In this document: one piece after another, positions 2,573 through 60,081 of the stretch
Position numbering within the stretch: the stretch's first letter is position 1
How the letters are laid out: each line of letters begins with the position of its first letter
From: an uncultured Gemmatimonadota bacterium
Lineage (GTDB): Bacteria; Gemmatimonadota; Gemmatimonadetes; Palauibacterales; Palauibacteraceae
Direction: 5' to 3'
Length of the DNA: 64,000 nt
NCBI GenBank assembly: GCA_964499635.1
Contig: CAZCLY010000013.1
Span: 62,329-126,328 of the forward strand
Made by a program: the position numbers and the translations under genes
The notes under the pieces: model-generated
The model's database searches: none
What the model was told of the DNA's origin: nothing
Seen by the model: only the letters and a program-made list of their open reading frames with translations

Positions 2573-5035
2573 ATGCGCCGAGGCGTATACGTGGCAACCG
2601 AGCTCGACCGACTCACCGCGGGCCTCTCCGACCGCTACCGCCTGGTGCGCGAGCTCGGCCGGGGCGGCATGGCCACCGTCTACCTGGCCGAGGACCCGAA
2701 GCACGGACGGAGTGTCGCCGTCAAGGTCCTGCGACGCGAGCTGGCGGCCACGCTCGGGGCCGACCGGTTCCTGCGCGAGATCGCGATCGCCGCCAGGCTC
2801 ACCCACCCGAACATCCTGCCGCTGCACGACTCCGGAGAGGCCGCCGGGCTGCTCTACTACGTGATGCCGTTCGTCGAGGGCGAGTCGCTCCGCGACCGGC
2901 TCCAGCGCGAGAAGCAGCTTCCGGTGGACGAGGCGATCCGGATCGCGCGCGAGGTGGCGGCGGCCCTGAGCTACGCCCACGGGCAGGGAGTGATCCACCG
3001 CGACATCAAGCCTGAGAACATCCTCCTGTCGAGCGGTCAGGCGGTGGTCGCCGACTTCGGCATCGCTCGCGCCCTGTCGGTCGCCGCGGGGTCGACCCTG
3101 ACGGGGACCGGCATCGCCCTCGGGACCCTCGGCTACATGAGTCCCGAGCAGGCGAGCGGAGAGACCGACCTCGACGCCCGCGTCGATGTGTACGCCCTCG
3201 GGTGCACGCTGTACGAGATGCTGGCAGGCGAGACGCCGCATACGGGCGGCACCGTGCAGGCCCTCCTGAACCGCATGCTGACCGAGCCGGTGCGACCGCT
3301 GCACCCCATCCGGGAGACCGTCCCGCCGGCCCTGGACGACGTGCTGGGGAGGGCCCTGGCGCGCACGCCGGCCGACCGTTTCCCGACCGTGTCGCGGTTC
3401 GCCGACGCGCTCGCGCACGTATCGACGATCAGCGCGGCCGAGGGGGCGATGGGTTCGGGCCGCGCGCGCGGCGCGGAGGGTTCGGGGAGGCGGTGGCGTG
3501 TCGCGCTCTCCACCGCCGCGGTCGTCGCGGCCGTCGCGCTCGGAGGCTGGATCATCGGATCGAACGTTGGCCGGGGCGCCGGATCGCCGTCCTACCGGCG
3601 GCTCGCGGTGCTCCCGCTCGACGACGTGAATCGCGACACCGCGCAGGACTACTTCGTGGACGGGCTGACCGATGCCCTGATCGGCACGGTGGCCCAGATC
3701 GGTTCGCTCGAGGTCATCTCCCGCACCTCCGTCATGCAGTACCGGGGCACGGACAAGACGCTCCCCGAGATCGGGCGCGAGCTGAACGTGGATGCGGTGG
3801 TGGAAGGGTCCGTGTCCCGCTCGAGCGGACGCGTCCTCGTCCGCGTGCACCTGGTGGACGCCCGCACCGATGCGCAGCTCTGGAGTCGGGACTACGATCG
3901 CGAGCTCGGCGACATCCTCCTCCTCCAGAGCGAGATCGCCCGGGAGATCGCGCGCCACGTGGACGCCCGGCTCACGAAACGCGAGTCGGATCGGCTGGCC
4001 GCCGCGGAGGCGGTGAACCCGGAGGTGCACGAGGAGTATCTGCGCGGGCGTTTCCAGCTCGAGCCGCGCACTCCGGACGGCTTCCGCGAGGCCCTGGACC
4101 ATTTCCGCCAGGCGCTCCAGCTGGATCCGACCTTCGCCCCGGCCCACGCCGGCCTGGCGGACTACTACCGGCTGCTGCCGTTCTACGACAACGTCACGCC
4201 GGCCGAGGCGTTCGGCAGGGCCAGGGCGGCGGCTCTCAAGGCGCTGGAGCTCGACCCGTCGCTGGGGGTGGCGCACGCGGCGCTGGGGTATGTCGTGGCC
4301 TACGCCGACTGGGATTGGGCGCAAGCGGAAGGGGAGCTCCGCCAGGCGCTCGAGCTCAACCCCAACGATGCCGATACCCACCACGCCTACAGCCGGCTGC
4401 TGGCCGGACTCGGCCGGCTGCCGGAGGCCGAGGTGGAAGCGCGGCGTGCCGACGAGCTCGATCCGCTGTCGCTGGTCGCGCACGCGAACCTGGGGGTGAT
4501 CTCGTACTTCGGGCGGGACTACGCCCGCGCCGCATCGCAGCTGGAATCCACGCTCGAGATCGATCCCGACTTCCCGGTCGCGCACTGGGGTCTGGGACTC
4601 GTGAACGAGCAGCTCGAACAGTACGACCAGGCCGTGGCCGAGTTCGAGAAGGCCATGGCGCTCGCGGGACGCGGCGTGAACAGCCTCGCCTCGTTGGCAC
4701 ACGTCCTCGCCGTCGCGGGGCGCACGACGGAGGCGGAGGCGGTGCTCGACGAGGTGCTCGAACGCACACGCACCCGGCATGTATACTCGTATCAGGTCGC
4801 GCTCGTGTACGCGAGTCTCGGCCGCGCCGACGAGGCGTTCGACTGGCTCGAGCGCGCGTACGAGGAGCGGTCGCCGATGTTGAGCTACGCGAAGCAGGAT
4901 CCCCGCTTCGACGATCTGCGCTCGGACGCCCGGTTCGCGGACCTGCTCCGCCGGGTGAACCTGGCACCACCGGCGGTGGTGCGGCAGGACGCCGCCCCGC
5001 CCGCCGGAGCCGCGGACGGGTCATCCGTCCGCTAG
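2573..5035 (+). CDS. serine/threonine protein kinase with C-terminal TPR repeat domain
   Basis: Hanks kinase motifs: GRGGMATVYLA, VAVK, HRDIKPENILL, DFG, SPEQ. A TM-like segment follows (WRVALSTAAVVAAVALGGWII). The C-terminal half is TPR-like (repeated A..Y.RAL.L.P... units). Confidence 0.85.
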   Translation: MRRGVYVATELDRLTAGLSDRYRLVRELGRGGMATVYLAEDPKHGRSVAVKVLRRELAATLGADRFLREIAIAARLTHPNILPLHDSGEAAGLLYYVMPFVEGESLRDRLQREKQLPVDEAIRIAREVAAALSYAHGQGVIHRDIKPENILLSSGQAVVADFGIARALSVAAGSTLTGTGIALGTLGYMSPEQASGETDLDARVDVYALGCTLYEMLAGETPHTGGTVQALLNRMLTEPVRPLHPIRETVPPALDDVLGRALARTPADRFPTVSRFADALAHVSTISAAEGAMGSGRARGAEGSGRRWRVALSTAAVVAAVALGGWIIGSNVGRGAGSPSYRRLAVLPLDDVNRDTAQDYFVDGLTDALIGTVAQIGSLEVISRTSVMQYRGTDKTLPEIGRELNVDAVVEGSVSRSSGRVLVRVHLVDARTDAQLWSRDYDRELGDILLLQSEIAREIARHVDARLTKRESDRLAAAEAVNPEVHEEYLRGRFQLEPRTPDGFREALDHFRQALQLDPTFAPAHAGLADYYRLLPFYDNVTPAEAFGRARAAALKALELDPSLGVAHAALGYVVAYADWDWAQAEGELRQALELNPNDADTHHAYSRLLAGLGRLPEAEVEARRADELDPLSLVAHANLGVISYFGRDYARAASQLESTLEIDPDFPVAHWGLGLVNEQLEQYDQAVAEFEKAMALAGRGVNSLASLAHVLAVAGRTTEAEAVLDEVLERTRTRHVYSYQVALVYASLGRADEAFDWLERAYEERSPMLSYAKQDPRFDDLRSDARFADLLRRVNLAPPAVVRQDAAPPAGAADGSSVR

Positions 5036-5077
5036 CGACCCGATGAACTTGCCCACCACGTTGCGGATCGCCCCCCC
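5021..5077 (-). pseudogene. remnant of the C-terminal tail of a beta-lactamase-family paralog (about 18 codons)
   Basis: Minus-strand tail translates to GGAIRNVVGKFIGSLADG*. It matches the C-terminus GAILQLVGKFIASLPSG* of the intact gene at 9454..11094. Nucleotides match roughly 30/35 (GATGAACTT.CCCACCA..T.G.G.ATCGCCCCC). The upstream reading frame is not protein-like. Confidence 0.4.
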
Positions 5078-5133
5078 GCGGTGCGACACGCGCACATTGG
5101 CGTGCACGCTACTCAGCCCCGAAGCCCCTGCCT

Positions 5134-6321
5134 TCATCCGTGCACAGGGCCACCGACCGCCCCGGGCCCCTGGCTGTGGCGCACCCACGCCGACAGGAAC
5201 GGATCGATGAGCCGGAATCGAGGCTCCCCGTCGCGGTGCTCCCCGCGCACCACATGGAGATCCTCGAGCTGCCGGAGGGCGGTCCGGAGGCTCGAGGAGG
5301 CGATCTGGAAACGGCGCGCGACGGCCGCGGACGCCAGCCCGCGCCCGTCCGTCTCCATGATCGCCTTCACGGCCTTCTTCTGGTTCTGACTGAGCGAAGA
5401 CCACAGCTGGGCGTAGGCGGGGTCCTCTTTTCCGAGCAGGCGTACCAGCGCATGGTCCACGGACGCGGGGGTCATCGTCGGGTCGTCCGCCACGCGCAGT
5501 AGTTCCCACACTTCGTGCGCGAGACGCTCCACGTTGTACGGCACCTCGTCGGCGCGGTGGAGGATCGCGTCGATCCCGGCCTCTTCCGGGGCCATCCCGG
5601 ATGCCTCGAACGTCTCGCGAAGGTGGCGGTGGAACTCCTCCCGCGGGATCTCGCGGACGAACAGTCGAGCCCCGAGCCGCCAGAACGGTCGCTCGGGATC
5701 CTCGGTCATCTCGGCCAGGAGCCGGGTCGCGGAGCCGGCGAACACGTATGCGGTGTGCCGATGACGCTGAACGACCGAGCGGAGCTGGCGCTCGGCGGGA
5801 CGACCGTGCTCCACGACGATCGCCTGCACCTCGTCGAGCAGTACCGCGACCGGAGCCTCCGTCTTCGAGGCCAGCCGCTCGACCGCGTCCAGCGTCTCCC
5901 CGAAGAGGGGCAGGGGGTCCTCCTCCCGGAGGCCGAGCGACACCGTCACGCCGCCGGTCGTCGGGTCGAGGCCGAGCTCCGGCCGCAGCCGGCCCGCCGC
6001 CTCGTTGAGCGCGGCGAGCACGCGCTCCACCGGTCCTCGAAGCTCGCGGGCCGCGGCGGTCAGAAGCGCCTGCGCGAGAAGCGGCAGCGTCTCGTACCGC
6101 TCCGCGTCGATCCGGAGCACGCGCGCCCCCCGGCCGCGGGCCTCCTCGGCGGCGGCGGCGAGCAGCGAGGTCTTGCCGTACCGGCGGGGGCCGATCAGGA
6201 AGAGCTTGCCGCGGTTGTCGATCGTTCGGCCGATCTCCGCCAGCTCGTCCTCACGGTCGACCAGTTCGCGGGGGGAAAGCTCCCGGCCGTACGGAAACGG
6301 ATTTCGCTCCCTGGATCTCAC
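5134..6321 (-). CDS. AAA-family ATPase (archaeal-ATPase/DUF234-like, C-terminal winged helix)
   Basis: Walker A GPRRYGKTSLL and a DExx-type Walker B LLDEVQ. NPFPYGRELSPRELVDRE N-terminus typical of the Arch_ATPase family. Start proposed at GTG 6321-6319, 4 nt after GGAGG. The track ATG at 6351 lies inside the upstream palindrome. Confidence 0.7.
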   Translation of the reverse strand: MRSRERNPFPYGRELSPRELVDREDELAEIGRTIDNRGKLFLIGPRRYGKTSLLAAAAEEARGRGARVLRIDAERYETLPLLAQALLTAAARELRGPVERVLAALNEAAGRLRPELGLDPTTGGVTVSLGLREEDPLPLFGETLDAVERLASKTEAPVAVLLDEVQAIVVEHGRPAERQLRSVVQRHRHTAYVFAGSATRLLAEMTEDPERPFWRLGARLFVREIPREEFHRHLRETFEASGMAPEEAGIDAILHRADEVPYNVERLAHEVWELLRVADDPTMTPASVDHALVRLLGKEDPAYAQLWSSLSQNQKKAVKAIMETDGRGLASAAVARRFQIASSSLRTALRQLEDLHVVRGEHRDGEPRFRLIDPFLSAWVRHSQGPGAVGGPVHG

Positions 6322-6329
6322 AGGGCCTC

Positions 6330-6374
6330 CCGCGTAAATTGCGCAACGCAAATCACGACGCGCAATTTACGCGG
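6330..6374. promoter_or_regulatory. perfect 15-nt inverted repeat with 15-nt spacer (CCGCGTAAATTGCGC ... GCGCAATTTACGCGG); candidate operator in the divergent promoter region
   Basis: Read directly from the sequence. The AT-containing palindrome stands out in a GC-rich background. It sits immediately 5' of the RBS/start of the minus-strand ATPase gene, about 135 nt upstream of the plus-strand secreted-protein gene. Confidence 0.5.
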
Positions 6375-6509
6375 TGCGAGAGCTCGGGCAACCCATCCGG
6401 TTCGGCATCCGGAGGCCTTCTCAGGGCCCTGGTGAAGCCGTACCATAGCTTCTCGCCCACACCCTGCGTGATCGGTGGTTTCTCGCACCTGACCTGTGGA
6501 GGCTTCCCC

Positions 6510-6962
6510 ATGAGGCTACGCATCTTCACCCCTGTCGTCGCGACCGTCGTTCTCGGGTCGGCTCTCCACTCTCCGGCCCCCGGCCTCGCCGGCGCCGGGC
6601 AGGAGGCTCCGGTCGTGACGATCGGCCTCGATGACGAAGGAAACATCACGGTCTCCCCGGATCCGGTCGTCGTGAACCGGGGAGAGACCGTCGAGTGGGT
6701 GGCCGATCCCGAGAGCGCCGTCGAGTCGTGGACGATCCGCTTCCGGTCGCCCGTCCCCTTCGGGAACGCCGCGGCGCAGCAGGGGATCAACGGCAACAGG
6801 GGGCAGCGCCGCGGCCAGGCGCTCAACGCCGAGGCCCAGGTGGGTCGACGTTACAAGTACATGGTCAGCGTATGGGACGGCCAGCGCGTACGGATCCTCG
6901 ACCCCGAGATCGAGGTCGGACCGGGCCAGCTCGCCTCGAATCGATCACGACGGAATCGATGA
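6510..6962 (+). CDS. hypothetical secreted protein (about 150 aa)
   Basis: ATG 6510 is preceded by GGAGG. Signal-peptide-like MRLRIFTPVVATVVLGSALHSPAPGLAGA. GC3-rich frame. I recognise no family. Confidence 0.5.
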   Translation: MRLRIFTPVVATVVLGSALHSPAPGLAGAGQEAPVVTIGLDDEGNITVSPDPVVVNRGETVEWVADPESAVESWTIRFRSPVPFGNAAAQQGINGNRGQRRGQALNAEAQVGRRYKYMVSVWDGQRVRILDPEIEVGPGQLASNRSRRNR

Positions 6963-6989
6963 TCCGCCCTCGCCGGAGGCGGTAGTCCC

Positions 6990-9332
6990 TTGTCCGAGAT
7001 CCCGCGCGACGCCTCCCGGGTCGACCCCGGACGCGAGGGTGCGGGCGGCGGGGCCGGGTCCGAGGCGGGGTCGGGCGATGTGAACGACACTCCCCGGCAG
7101 ATCGGCCCCTACAGGATCCTCCGAACGCTCGGCGAGGGAGGGATGGGGGTCGTGTACGAGGCCCGACAGATCGAGCCCGTGCAGCGGCGCGTCGCCCTCA
7201 AGATCATCAAGCTCGGCATGGACACGAAGCAGGTCGTCGCCCGCTTCGAGGCCGAGCGCCAGGCCCTCGCGGTCATGGACCATCCCTTCATCGCCAAGGT
7301 CCTCGATGCGGGCGTGACCGAGACGGGCCGTCCGTACTTCGTCATGGAGCTGGTCAACGGGGTTCCCCTGACCGAGTACTGCGACGCGCAGAAGCTCGCC
7401 ACCGACCAGCGGCTCGAGCTCTTCATCCAGGTGTGCGCCGCGGTCCAGCATGCCCATCACAAAGGGGTCATCCACCGCGATCTCAAGCCGAGCAACGTCC
7501 TGGTCTCCCTGCAGGACGGGAAGCCGGTGCCGCGTGTGATCGACTTCGGGATCGCGAAGGCCGTGGGGCAGGACTTCACCGACCGGACACTGGTCACGCA
7601 GCTCGGCCAGATGGTGGGGACGCCCGAGTACATGAGTCCGGAGCAGGCCGAGATGTCGGGCATCGACGTCGACACCCGGACCGACATCTATTCGCTCGGC
7701 GTGATGCTGTACGAGCTCCTGGTGGGCGCGCTTCCCTTCGACCTGCGCGGCGTATCCGACATCGCCAGGCAGACCACGATCCGGGAGAGGAACGCCCCCA
7801 CGCCGAGTGCCCGGCTCACGACGCTCTCCGGAGAGCAGCAGGAAACCGTGGCCCGGTATCGTCATACCGATCCCGGAACGCTCAAGACGGCGCTCAAGGG
7901 GGACCTGGATTGGGTGGTGATGCGGTGTCTCGAGAAGGACCGGACGCGACGATACGAGACGGTCAATGCCCTCGCCATGGAGCTCGGGCGACACCTCGAT
8001 GACCAGCCGGTCCTCGCCCGGCCGCCGAGCACGAAGTACCGCCTGCAGAAGTTCGTGCGCCGGAACAGGACCGCCGTGATCGCCGCGTGCGTCGCGGGGC
8101 TCGCCATCTCGGGTGGAGCCGTGGCCGCCACCATCGGGATGGTGAAGGCGCGGCGCGCGGAGACGCGGGCCGAGCGGGAGTCGGCCACGGCCAAACAGGT
8201 GTCGGAGTTCCTCGAGGATCTGTTCGAGGTGAGCGATCCCAACGAGGCGCTCGGGAACACGATCACCGCCCGGGAGCTCCTGGATCGTGGAGCGGCGCGC
8301 ATCGAGGACGAGCTATCCGGCCAACCGCTGGTCCAAGCGCGGATGATGGCCTCGATGGGCGAGGTGTTCCGGAAGCTCGGGCTGTACGACAGCTCGCTCC
8401 CGCTGCTGGAGCGGGCCCTCGCCCTCCGGGAGCGGGAGCTGGGAAGCGACGACCTCGAGGTCGCCGCCAGCCTTCACCAGCTCGCGACCCTGCACCGTTA
8501 CCGGGGGGAGTACGACGCGGCGGAAGAGCTGTACAAGCGCGCGCTCGCCATCCGGGAGCGGAGGCTGGGGCCGAATGACCTCGATATGGCGACCAGCATC
8601 GGAGGTCTGGCCGGACTGTATCTGAGGCGGGAGCGATACGCCGAGGCCGAACCGCTGCTCCGGCGCGAGCTCGCAATCCGCGAAACGGCGCCCGGATCGG
8701 ATGAGCTCGACATGGCGACCACGCTCTCCGACCTAGGGGTCCTGTACTGGGGGCAAGGAGAGTACGCGGCGGCCGAGCCGTTCTTCGAGCGATCGGTCGA
8801 GATCCGGGAGTCGAAGCTCGGTCCCGACGACCCCACTGTCGCCTCGGCGTACAACAACCTCGGCGCGCTCTACTGGTCACAGGGGAAATACCAGGAGGCC
8901 GAGGGCGTCTACGAGAAGGCGAGGCGGATCTTCGAGAAGACGCTGGGGCCCGAGCATCCGCGGGTGGCGGGGATCCTCAACAACCTGGCGGAGACGGCCT
9001 GGGCGTTGAAGCGGTACGATGAGGCCGATTCGTTCTTCACGCGCTCGCTCGCGATCAAGGAACGAACCCTGGCGACGGATCACCCGAGCGTGGCGATCGG
9101 CCTGAACGGGCTGGCGAATCTGCGCCGCGATCAGGGCCGGTTCGCCGAGGCGGAATCCCTGTACCGGAGGGCGCTCGACATCCGGGAACGAGTGTTCGGA
9201 CCGGACGGCGGTCCGGTGGCGGAGACGCTCGAGGGGATGGCCGACCTTCTCCGGCGGGTGGATCGGACGGACGAGGCCGACAGGCTGGCAGCTCGGGCGC
9301 TCGACATCCGGACGTCGGCGAAGGACCGCTGA
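6990..9332 (+). CDS. serine/threonine protein kinase with C-terminal TPR (TPR_12-like) domain
   Basis: TTG start 10 nt after GGAGG. Kinase motifs: [36 protein letters not shown]-like segment [24 protein letters not shown]. The C-terminus has about 8 TPR-like repeats (LYRRAL.IRE..LGP.H). Confidence 0.85.
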
Positions 9333-9453
9333 CCAGAGCGTGCCGCGCCCGTGCGTGGCGGTCCGGACCTGGTGGTCGACCGGTCTTCGACGGCCTTCGA
9401 CACGGGGGGTGGCGGCCCGCACACGGGCAGGGCGTGCAGCGCACGCGGACCGA

Positions 9454-11094
9454 TCAGCCGCTCGGGAGGGACGCGATGAACTTCCCCACCAGCTGGAGAA
9501 TCGCCCCCTCGTACTCCCAGCTTTCCGCCGGTCCGAGGCGGTAGAGGGGGTCGGCGGCGGTGACGACAAGCATGTCGAGGTCGTGCAGCAGGACGATCAG
9601 ATTGCCGCCGTGTCCCCAGGCGAAGTCGAATCGGTGCTCGCCCACCCTCGCGGACCACCACTGATATCCGTAGGCGATGTTTCGAAGATAGGGGCCCATA
9701 TAGTTGTCGGAGTCCCGCCGCCAACGGTCGTCCCACATGCCCGTGGAATACGCCTGCAGGGACTCTCCGACCCAGTCCGCGGGGAGGACGCGAGTGCCCT
9801 CGTACTCACCTCCACGGAGATAAAGGAGGCCGAACTTGGCCATATCGCGAGGTGTAACGGAGATCTCGAACGAGCCGAAGTTGTAGCCATCCGCGTCGCG
9901 GGTCCAGCTCCCTAGCTGGGCGCCGAGCGGTGCGAACAGGGTTCGCTCGGCGAACGATTCGAGTGTCGTGTCGCACGCCCGCGCGACGATGATCCCGAGG
10001 ATGTGGGACGTCAGGTTGCTGTACCCGAATCCCGTGCCCGGATCATTGCTCAGAGGGAAGTCGACGAGGTGGGGGAGCCAGCGCAGGTCGCCGGTCGCGA
10101 ACAGGATCTCGGCATACGGCGGCTCGCGTTCCTCCCAGGGATATCCGGCGCGCATCTGGAGCAGCTGCCGGATCGTGATCCGCTCCTTCCGCGGGTCCGT
10201 GATCCGCCCGGCGAGCTCTGGGAAGAAGTCCATCATCCTCTGGTCCAGGCTCGCCAGGCATCCCCGATCGAGCGCGATGCCGACCAGCGCCGAGGTGTAG
10301 CTCTTGGTCACGGACTGAACGACGTTCTTCCGCTCCACCCCCCCATCGTTGAAGTATCCTTCCGCGATCAGTCGGCCGTTCTTGACGACCAGGACCCCGT
10401 TCAGGGTCGACAGCTCGGCGGCATCGAGATACAGCTCCGCCACGAGCGCCGGATCCAGCCCTTCCTCGCGCGGCGTGGACACGCTCCAATCGGCGCCCGG
10501 GAGCGGCGCGTATTCGACCCTCTCGAGATCCTCGGCACGAGGGTGCAGCATCGCCGCGATCCGGGGACGGGTCCTGCGGATCTGTTCGTAGTCGAGTTGC
10601 AGCCCCAGCGGCCCCAGGGCCTCTCCGAGCAGGTCGTAGATCCCCCTGGCATCCTCGAACGGAGCGGCGACGGCGTCGAACGGTGTCTGGCCCTCGTGGT
10701 CGCGGGCATACCTGTCGGCTCCCCCGTCCAGCAGGGCCCGCACGATCTCGACGCGGCAGAGGAACGCGGCGATGTAGAGCGGGGTGGCTCCGTCGTCGTT
10801 GGCGATCTCCAGGTCGACTCCCGCTTCGATCAACGCACGGGCTACCTCCACCCTGCCGAACGTGGCCGCGATGATCAGTGGCGTGGAGCCGTACCGGTCC
10901 CTCGCGTCCAGGTCCGTGCCCGCCGCGATGTGCCGACGAACGCCCTCGAGGTCTCCGCGCAGGGCCGCCAGGTGGAGGTCCACGCCCGGGGGCTGTTGCC
11001 TCGCGGCTGCGAGCGGACGCGACGCCACGAGCAGGACCGCCAGGGCCGCGCCGAGGAGCGCCGTCACGCCACGTCCCCCGAGCCGGGGGCTCAT
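9454..11094 (-). CDS. secreted ankyrin-repeat / beta-lactamase-family serine hydrolase fusion protein
   Basis: Start chosen at MSPRLGGRGVTALLGAALAVLLVASRPLAAA, a signal peptide; ATG 11094 follows GGAG. Ankyrin repeats (GSTPLIIAA..G..E....LI.AGADL, three units). C-terminal domain carries an SxxK motif (SVTKS) and YxN-like features of beta-lactamase/PBP-like esterases. The N-terminal 182 codons of the track ORF are not protein-like. Confidence 0.75.
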   Translation of the reverse strand: MSPRLGGRGVTALLGAALAVLLVASRPLAAARQQPPGVDLHLAALRGDLEGVRRHIAAGTDLDARDRYGSTPLIIAATFGRVEVARALIEAGVDLEIANDDGATPLYIAAFLCRVEIVRALLDGGADRYARDHEGQTPFDAVAAPFEDARGIYDLLGEALGPLGLQLDYEQIRRTRPRIAAMLHPRAEDLERVEYAPLPGADWSVSTPREEGLDPALVAELYLDAAELSTLNGVLVVKNGRLIAEGYFNDGGVERKNVVQSVTKSYTSALVGIALDRGCLASLDQRMMDFFPELAGRITDPRKERITIRQLLQMRAGYPWEEREPPYAEILFATGDLRWLPHLVDFPLSNDPGTGFGYSNLTSHILGIIVARACDTTLESFAERTLFAPLGAQLGSWTRDADGYNFGSFEISVTPRDMAKFGLLYLRGGEYEGTRVLPADWVGESLQAYSTGMWDDRWRRDSDNYMGPYLRNIAYGYQWWSARVGEHRFDFAWGHGGNLIVLLHDLDMLVVTAADPLYRLGPAESWEYEGAILQLVGKFIASLPSG

Positions 11095-11561: not shown

Positions 11562-11827
11562 GACATGGCTCCCAGCTGAGGTGTCGCCGTCCGGCAGGAG
11601 AGAGGTCCGGGTTCGCAGGGACCTGCCACCCGCCGGGCACCCCGACCGAGCGGAAGCCGCGCGACGCGAGCTCAGCGGTGTCCCGACGTCGCCGGGGTGA
11701 GCGGTGCGTGCTCCCGAAAGGTACTCGAATCGAGGCCGGCCTGCCCCCGGATCGGGCCGCCGGGTCGGGCCCGCGGACCCGCCGGCGCGCTGCGCCCGCC
11801 GACGGGATCCTCCGGGGCGACGTGACC

Positions 11828-56631: not shown

Positions 56632-56678
56632 CTCCGGTCCGACGGCCTCGGGAACACGGCCGCGGGAGTGTGGACCAC

Positions 56679-56738
56679 CGGGGAACCTGGCTGCCGAACA
56701 GGTTCACGAGGCCATCCCCGGTCGCCGGCGGGGCCCCG
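56679..56738. repeat. copy A of a ~45-60 nt dispersed direct repeat (core ACCGGGGA.CCT.G.T.CCGAACAGGTTCACGA.G.CATC)
   Basis: About 35/41 core identity to copy B at 60016-60081. Copy A also folds as a nested hairpin (ACCGGGGA...TCCCCGGT enclosing AACCTG...CAGGTT). Lies 60-120 nt upstream of padR 56805. Confidence 0.4.
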
Positions 56739-60015: not shown

Positions 60016-60081
60016 ACCGGGGACCCTCGTTCCCGAACAGGTTCACGATGTCATCGCCGTTCGATGGCCGGGGTGCGCCGG
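60016..60081. repeat. copy B of the dispersed direct repeat (see 56679..56738), about 150 nt downstream of the ADOP stop
   Basis: Shares the exact 16-mer CCGAACAGGTTCACGA and about 85% identity over roughly 41 nt with copy A. The copy A hairpin is not conserved in B. Confidence 0.4.

Follow-up and report, generated by a model that had tools for sequence, protein, structure and literature searches.

Orphan C-terminal ends are found in Rhs and CDI loci. Homology-facilitated illegitimate recombination has reportedly been proposed for the orphan effector ends of T6SS arrays, and the sequential displacement of T6SS effector genes is the subject of PMC5361080. Such displaced 3' ends, together with the ordinary gene remnants of bacteria, which are truncated pseudogene fragments that a deletion or replacement leaves behind, are the described systems to which we compare a feature from an uncultured Gemmatimonadota lineage, located in a 64,000-nt stretch of contig CAZCLY010000013.1 (hereafter the window), where the 3' end of a serine hydrolase gene occurs twice, once without the rest of the gene. 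A first-pass annotation had read this arrangement as the trace left by duplication of a unit of kinase and hydrolase. The feature is instead an ordinary gene remnant, which documents one rearrangement breakpoint in this lineage and on which no open biological question hinges.

A second hydrolase gene end in the window

The remnant occupies positions 5021-5077 on the minus strand and comprises the last 18 codons and the stop of an ankyrin/beta-lactamase-family gene (GGAIRNVVGKFIGSLADG, then TGA at 5021-5023, the frame ending in HRGGAIRNVVGKFIGSLADG before the stop). It overlaps, in antisense, the final 15 nt of a Ser/Thr kinase gene (kinase 1, 2573-5035, plus strand). An intact gene of the same family lies at 9454-11094, also on the minus strand, and encodes a 546-aa serine hydrolase with a signal-peptide-like N-terminus, ankyrin repeats and a PF00144 beta-lactamase-family domain, ending in EGAILQLVGKFIASLPSG; it converges on a second kinase gene (kinase 2, 6990-9332, plus strand). 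Such hydrolases carry the source annotation 'CubicO group peptidase (beta-lactamase class C family)', and the named top matches of the family belong to Gemmatimonadales/Gemmatimonadota, with genome records labelled with many phyla. The first-pass annotation had correctly placed and read both kinases, the frame of the remnant and the end of the intact hydrolase, and had rightly seen in the 18 codons a true remnant of such a gene whose body is gone; the nucleotide identity that it gave for the two tails, 30/35, is actually 28/35.

The two ends form an ungapped 68-nt direct repeat, 5011-5078 and 9444-9511 (the intact 3' end plus 10 nt past its stop), with 52/68 identical positions (76%) and an offset of 4433 nt from one copy to the other. 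Instead of coding homology, chance likeness might be suspected, or a cis-element common to both sites (a convergent terminator, for instance), in a 70% GC genome holding many 40-57-nt repeats of 70-80% identity, and an 8-bp hairpin is indeed present at 5012-5032. Nevertheless, we regard this explanation as extremely improbable. Over the whole window and both strands, the next-best ungapped match to the 68-mer reaches 39/68, the 17-mer core occurs only in the two repeat copies and never in shuffled sequences, and the tail peptide motif appears only twice in the six-frame translation. The hairpin is missing from the second copy and folding is no better than in shuffles (z -0.2 to -1.5). As no terminator-like sites were found either, a shared RNA or terminator element was rejected. 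The match is, moreover, in frame and terminates at a stop. A profile HMM built from the final 21 residues of 92 homologues, all from other genomes and with the local hydrolase left out, still detects the remnant (E=6.7e-4, profile columns 5-18, against E=2.9 for the second-best match), whose stop codon falls at the family stop position.

The family tail, W-x2-E-G-A-I-I-N-L-V-G-K-F-I-x-S-L-P-x-x-stop, is kept in nearly all of 120 homologues. The match of the remnant to this tail covers its last 17 codons; among the strongly conserved columns between 5 and 21, column 19 is the only one where the majority residue is not kept. Directly upstream, where the invariant W1 and E4 should stand, both are missing, placing a sharp breakpoint at about 5075-5078. 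Beyond this point, the frame upstream is Arg/Pro/Gly-rich and corresponds to an off-frame of the neighbouring ATPase gene, and the 162-aa ORF in the remnant frame has no Pfam match; the frame itself stays open. A tblastn search of the window with the full hydrolase returned, besides the intact gene, only a 14-aa tail at 5033-5074. The remnant retains only a part of the C-terminal family signature, G-A-I-x-N-x-V-G-K-F-I-x-S-L-x-x-G-stop, and, unlike the family genes, lacks the N-terminal ankyrin repeats, the PF00144 hydrolase domain, in which the S-x-x-K motif lies, and the tail-opening W and E; judged by its residues, it is a fragment of a gene of this family and not a member gene. It also occurs on three further contigs of the same population, from separate samples or assemblies and all >99.9% identical, and is therefore not an assembly artefact; no SNPs were observed within it in this population.

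Two residues of the remnant were unseen in the 92 homologue tails, an R in a hydrophobic column and an A where 91/92 have P, each one nucleotide away from a family residue. Compared with the neighbouring hydrolase, seven of its codons are identical, five synonymous and six non-synonymous. Since 5 of the 12 codons that agree in amino acid differ synonymously, the two tails diverged long ago. Identity over the 42-nt core is 33/42 with the neighbour and 34/42 and 32/42 with orthologues from other genomes, so that, on sequence grounds, the remnant does not derive from the neighbour in particular. The first 10 nt past both stops match at 8/10 positions, a post hoc observation that weakly hints at a more specific link between the copies.

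Flanking kinases and the intervening segment

The first-pass annotation had proposed a tandem duplication of a kinase and hydrolase unit, the hydrolase of the first copy being later deleted save for its 3' end. Each hydrolase tail does converge on a Ser/Thr kinase-TPR gene and the repeat is direct, as such a duplication would leave, but the kinases themselves are unrelated beyond their common domain. Their identity is 33% and confined to the kinase domain, and their C-terminal architectures differ: kinase 1 combines a Pkinase domain with a membrane-proximal region (annotated as 'TolB-like' in the source records of its homologues, with no Pfam model match here) and classical TPR, while kinase 2 carries Pkinase and TPR_10/TPR_12, with 126-nt repeats at 8376-9225. 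The two are also not each other's closest paralogues, kinase 1 being closer to more than 100 full-length homologues elsewhere (46-63% identity), the nearest of which (63% and 56%) are followed by unrelated genes.

The linkage of kinase and hydrolase is likewise absent in the relatives compared. No convergent kinase was found beside the hydrolase orthologues of loci L001, L002 and the other loci compared, and tail comparison was possible for 14 family loci, of which a single one (L006) encodes a kinase, upstream and not convergent. Similarity between the two copies also ends at the tail, as identity upstream of 5078 is at background (24%) and that of the 3' flank, 38-40% against a null of 29%, is not significant (P = 0.03-0.1). 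Kinases are abundant in these genomes, with four in 22 kb at locus L005, making the adjacency of kinase and hydrolase a mild coincidence. Taken with this evidence, a duplication is very improbable, and the locus illustrates how readily kinases in convergent orientation lead to a duplication story that over-interprets the sequence. PADLOC matches to both kinases cover kinase domains only and were not accepted as evidence for a defence system.

The place where the lost hydrolase body would be is occupied, as the first-pass annotation had stated, by the gene of an AAA-type ATPase (PF01637/AAA_16) with a C-terminal region (5134-6321, minus strand). Its homology to relatives is confined to 5167-6309; three of these, with 81%, 80% and 70% nucleotide identity, align across the coding sequence only, and their flanks are all unrelated. 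An operator-like inverted repeat (CGCGTAAATTGCGC-N15-GCGCAATTTACGCG) lies upstream at 6331-6373, and the homologues in L086-L088 are also preceded by similar AT-rich repeats. As far as these alignments indicate, the gene is a self-contained, context-independent unit with its own operator-like repeat, and we flag it for its different context in every relative examined. Scanning metagenomes with the ATPase recovered only relatives of at most 55% identity, none of them with the remnant.

Between the ATPase gene and kinase 2, and directly upstream of the latter, a 150-aa protein without family match and with a hydrophobic, signal-peptide-like N-terminus is encoded at 6510-6962 (plus strand). The 4.4-kb segment flanked by the two copies of the 76%-identical repeat (5079-9443) encodes only the ATPase, this protein and kinase 2. 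Flanking direct repeats are a feature of att sites and target-site duplications; the segment is devoid of integrase, transposase and recombinase genes and of terminal inverted repeats, and a mobile element was rejected.

The same geometry could have arisen by displacement of the tail of a single hydrolase gene by incoming DNA carrying a hydrolase 3' portion, kinase 2, the small ORF and the ATPase gene. The block would have entered by homologous recombination within the hydrolase gene at one end and by an illegitimate join, at codon ~530, at the other, pushing the resident tail 4.4 kb downstream, a course of events that amounts to homology-facilitated illegitimate recombination. The remnant does follow the intact gene downstream in the same orientation, as a direct repeat, and the divergence of the two tails matches that between orthologues of different genomes, as would fit the arrival of a foreign allele. 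A homologous join at one end combined with an illegitimate one at the other is a mechanism described in PMC3240628. By contrast, GC and GC3 give no compositional sign of foreign DNA, GC3 being uniform (0.83-0.91) over the block and its flanks, and the ATPase is a single-gene unit in relatives that does not travel with kinase 2. We consider a displacement possible but rather unlikely.

The junction and its 38-codon reading frame

The junction DNA between the remnant and the conserved part of the ATPase gene (5078-5167) is without assignable homology. It encodes the tail of the ATPase, which is not conserved, and the N-terminal 20 codons of a 38-codon ORF (5021-5137, minus strand; MKAGASGLSSVHANVRVSHRGGAIRNVVGKFIGSLADG) that runs into the remnant and shares its stop. 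This ORF calls for caution in annotation, as gene callers turn the remnant into a 38-aa 'protein' on all three same-population contigs examined.

The ORF could be a real small-protein gene, translationally coupled to the ATPase, in which the hydrolase tail was recruited as a functional peptide. Its ATG overlaps the TGA of the ATPase (ATGA), it is called on three contigs of one population, and its GC by codon position (0.64/0.53/0.84) is coding-like. Its N-terminal 20 codons alone, although a small sample, have a coding-like GC3 of 0.79, a value unexpected for random junction DNA that counts against viewing the ORF as a remnant only. However, high GC3 and long open off-frames are common in a 70% GC genome, the ORF has no family match, its N-terminal half is without homologue, and the two family-atypical substitutions are consistent with decay. 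The ORF is present solely in the same-population contigs, and neither it nor the tail was found beside the ATPase homologues, whether 70-81% identical or more distant (L086-L088, L091-L115), nor was the ORF found beside the kinase 1 homologues L004 and L005. A genuine small-protein gene is thus very unlikely, and the ORF is probably fortuitous. Still bolder, and highly improbable, is an expressed ORF, coupled to the ATPase via ATGA, whose hydrolase-derived C-terminal peptide (GAIRNVVGKFIGSL) has taken on a new role by exaptation, such as that of a decoy or of an interaction tag connected with the hydrolase next to it; if true, this would represent the de novo birth of a small gene out of a gene remnant.

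Proposed history and comparison with described systems

We consider it likely that 5021-5077 is a non-functional 3' remnant of an ankyrin/beta-lactamase-family serine hydrolase gene, left behind by a rearrangement. The parent gene would have been a family member distinct from the present tail of the neighbour, a second paralogue or else the tail of an older allele, and would formerly have faced kinase 1 in convergent orientation across a spacer of some 50 nt. The rearrangement may then have deleted everything upstream of codon ~530 and, in the same event, left the self-contained ATPase gene some 90 nt away from the breakpoint. This truncation may be fairly recent, the tail being still family-like save for the two residues unseen among homologues. 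Kinase 1 ends in a lineage-specific extension of ~21 codons (about 4973-5032) and stops within the remnant; this extension could have been acquired since or have been there already.

No close relative with the same locus occurs in the collections searched, where the next homologue of kinase 1 reaches 63% identity, and the ancestral arrangement is consequently not directly visible. Searches for proteins identical to kinase 1 and to the ATPase gave no match with starts of our own choosing and, with the database versions, only same-population contigs. A degenerate DNA pattern for NVVGKFIGSL, designed for an intact relative of the parent of the remnant, had no match in metagenome_contigs, and the gene contexts of hydrolase orthologues are not conserved.

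Compared with displaced orphan 3' ends, the locus presents the same layout: downstream of an intact gene and in the same orientation lies a second, diverged version of that gene's 3' end, and the genes that separate the two are unrelated. It differs in not being a polymorphic toxin locus, in having no immunity gene after the fragment, and in that no recombination breakpoint is demonstrated inside the intact hydrolase. It is unlike typical gene remnants in its size of only 17-18 codons, in being in frame with its stop intact, and in its chance fusion to an ATG overlapping the stop of a neighbour, which yields a predicted 38-aa protein. Yet, like other bacterial gene remnants, it is short, has no start, preserves only the 3' end of a gene whose family can be recognised, and sits in an intergenic position with a sharp breakpoint; it also shows early signs of decay, here two family-atypical substitutions.

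Layout of the locus and anatomy of the relic tail

Within this GC-rich window (70% GC), whose best-named gene homologues originate from Gemmatimonadota/Gemmatimonadales MAGs, kinase 1 (2573–5035, + strand) combines a Pkinase domain, a membrane-proximal region and classical TPR; the middle region matched no Pfam model here, and source annotations of kinase 1 homologues describe it as TolB-like. The 3' end of this gene is overlapped by 15 nt by a start-less tail on the opposite strand (5021–5077, −), reading GGAIRNVVGKFIGSLADG up to a stop. Beyond it lie an AAA-type ATPase (PF01637/AAA_16; 5134–6321/6351, −), a 150-aa protein with a hydrophobic, signal-peptide-like N-terminus (6510–6962, +) and kinase 2 (6990–9332, +; Pkinase and TPR_10/TPR_12), on which converges an ankyrin and PF00144 beta-lactamase-family hydrolase gene (9454–11094, −) with the C-terminal end EGAILQLVGKFIASLPSG and a stop. 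Two other repeats were noted in the window: a 126-nt (42-aa) TPR_10/TPR_12 unit in six copies within kinase 2 (8376–9225; 62–70% nucleotide identity), and a 57-nt direct repeat (56677–56733 and 60016–60072, spacing 3339 nt, 81% identity) that probably reflects paralogous genes.

A repeat finder recovered the two hydrolase tails as an ungapped 68-nt direct repeat (5011–5078 and 9444–9511) with 52/68 identical positions, against 39/68 for the runner-up when this 68-mer was scored at every window position on both strands. Its 17-nt core GATGAACTTSCCCACCA occupies two sites only in the window, even with 2 mismatches allowed, and never arose in shuffles, while six-frame translation of the window yielded the peptide motif [VLIM]G[KR][FYL][IVLM]x[SAT][LIV] just twice. 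Of 120 homologues in other genomes, nearly all keep the family tail, W-x2-E-G-A-I-I-N-L-V-G-K-F-I-x-S-L-P-x-x before the stop. When 92 of these tails were combined into a profile HMM that leaves out the local gene, it matched the intact gene (E=5e-11) and the relic (E=6.7e-4), and the remaining window sequence no better than E=2.9. In addition, the relic stop codon falls at the family stop position. The relic also lies on three further same-population contigs, each >99.9% identical and derived from a separate sample or assembly; it is therefore not an assembly artefact. This population is represented in SRR8557363 and in JGI 3300032062 and 3300031360. The relic is real, statistically sound and more than chance. 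The first-pass annotation had located all features correctly, including the overlap with kinase 1, and its recognition of a hydrolase relic is borne out by the repeat, the profile match and the stop position; the near-match it reported between the tails also holds, at 28/35 nucleotides instead of the slightly high 30/35.

Across tail columns 5–21, the relic has the majority residue at each strongly conserved position except column 19; in place of the invariant tail-opening residues W1 and E4 it has S and G. Directly upstream, nucleotide identity falls to background (24%), which together with these losses places the breakpoint at ~5075–5078. Two relic residues are absent from all 92 homologue tails (an R in a hydrophobic column, and an A where 91/92 have P), both one nucleotide away from a family residue, as early decay would be expected to look. 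Searching with the full hydrolase (tblastn) revealed no further fragments in the window, and the ~90 nt separating the relic from conserved ATPase sequence (5078–5167) could not be assigned an origin. The relic is an ordinary gene remnant.

Relation to the neighbouring hydrolase and the kinases

Over the 42-nt core encoding GAIxxxVGKFIxSL, the relic is no closer to the neighbouring gene (33/42) than to orthologues from other genomes (34/42 in L002; 32/42 in L013, L015 and L030), giving no support to its being a copy of this neighbour. Its nucleotide similarity is fully explained by family-level protein conservation and GC-rich codon usage. Relic and neighbour share 7 identical codons, with 5 synonymous and 6 non-synonymous differences, the latter mainly in family-variable columns; this pattern indicates an old divergence of the two tails, for the most part under selection, and a truncation of the relic's parent that happened only recently. 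A closer link is hinted at solely by the first 10 nt past both stops (8/10 identical), similarity deeper into the 3' flank being not significant against random segment pairs (P 0.03–0.1).

The two tails had also been read as the footprint of a duplicated kinase and hydrolase unit, and this part did not withstand comparison. The kinases share 33% identity, confined to the kinase domain, with different C-terminal architectures, and kinase 1 has >100 full-length homologues in other genomes at 46–63% identity; with such low mutual identity and closer homologues elsewhere, they are not each other's closest paralogues. A kinase gene occurs at one of 14 family loci with comparable tails, lying upstream and not convergent. 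These genomes are rich in such kinases (four in 22 kb in L005, a kinase 1 homologue locus), so one facing each tail is only a mild coincidence. What stands of the earlier interpretation is a hydrolase relic whose body was replaced.

Kinase 1 ends in a low-complexity extension of 21 residues (4973–5035; PAVVRQDAAPPAGAADGSSVR) that is absent from seven homologues, crosses what used to be spacer and terminates within the relic; the ancestral kinase stop thus lay ~50 nt from the hydrolase stop.

Ank and PF00144 orthologues (L006–L030; 50–64% identity) come from MAGs labelled Gemmatimonadota, Eiseniibacteriota, Phycisphaeraceae, Deinococcales, Acidobacteriota, Spirochaetota and others, suggesting wide horizontal spread or mis-binning. 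The best protein-collection match of the intact hydrolase is 69%, with none at 100%; 100% matches exist for kinase 1 and the ATPase, on the same contig. Orthologues in MAGs whose labels name different phyla share a hairpin directly 3' of the stop, such as GCCGG-AGTAACGTT-CCGGC or one containing GACGTTCCGG (L001 ~11630–11660, L002 ~5040–5070, L023 ~2210–2240, L030 ~785–815), which is absent from the window and might represent a terminator or a 3' element transferred along with the gene.

The ATPase gene and a small overlapping frame

The ATPase relatives in L086, L087 and L088 (81%, 80% and 70% nucleotide identity) are homologous to the window over coding sequence only (window 5167–6309), and their flanks share no homology with the window or among themselves; their neighbours are a hotdog-like gene (read from translation), a PIN/antitoxin pair and an alpha/beta hydrolase, one in each. 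A perfect 14-nt inverted repeat, CGCGTAAATTGCGC-N15-GCGCAATTTACGCG, lies 5' of the gene (6331–6373), and similar AT-rich CGTAAATT(G/A)CG repeats lie 5' of the homologues (L086 ~960–1040, L087 ~740–810, L088 ~2400–2480). Some homologues have MarR-type or IclR-type HTH Pfam matches, or are named at source as, for instance, ArsR/IclR regulator, and the repeat looks like an autoregulatory operator for a DNA-binding C-terminal region. Given this coding-limited homology and these upstream repeats, the ATPase gene acts as a self-contained entity, carries its own putative operator and sits in a context that differs per relative; gene and operator seem to relocate as a unit.

A 38-codon ORF, reading MKAGASGLSSVHANVRVSHRGGAIRNVVGKFIGSLADG up to a stop, has its ATG (5137) overlapping the ATPase TGA (ATGA). 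Gene callers predicted it on three same-population contigs, and its codon-position GC resembles that of coding sequence (0.64/0.53/0.84); at 70% GC, long off-frame ORFs of high GC3 are routine. It matched no family and was absent beside all ATPase or kinase 1 homologues outside this population, and we consider a real small protein highly improbable.

Candidate histories of the locus

A hydrolase family member was most likely once convergent on kinase 1, and a rearrangement would then have stripped everything upstream of codon ~530, leaving the ATPase unit beside the stump. A mobile-element reading is unsupported, as neither an integrase or transposase nor terminal inverted repeats were found, and so is a cis-element reading (no shared fold or terminator). 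At both loci inspected (L001 13453–16618; L002 6670–10481), genes typical of mobile elements (DDE transposase, Fic, Tn3 transposase and resolvase) occur a few kb 3' of the hydrolase orthologue.

Two routes to such a truncation are candidates. A second, old hydrolase paralogue may have been truncated, which fits slightly better with uniform GC3 and the single-gene behaviour of the ATPase. Alternatively, the tail of a single resident gene may have been displaced by incoming DNA, with homologous recombination inside the gene and an illegitimate event at codon ~530; such a displacement predicts the relic's same-strand position downstream of the intact hydrolase, but the uniform GC3 (0.83–0.91) bears no sign of foreign DNA. 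The mechanism of this displacement would be homology-facilitated illegitimate recombination, as described in PMC3240628, and sequential displacement is, by its title, the subject of PMC5361080 for T6SS effector genes.
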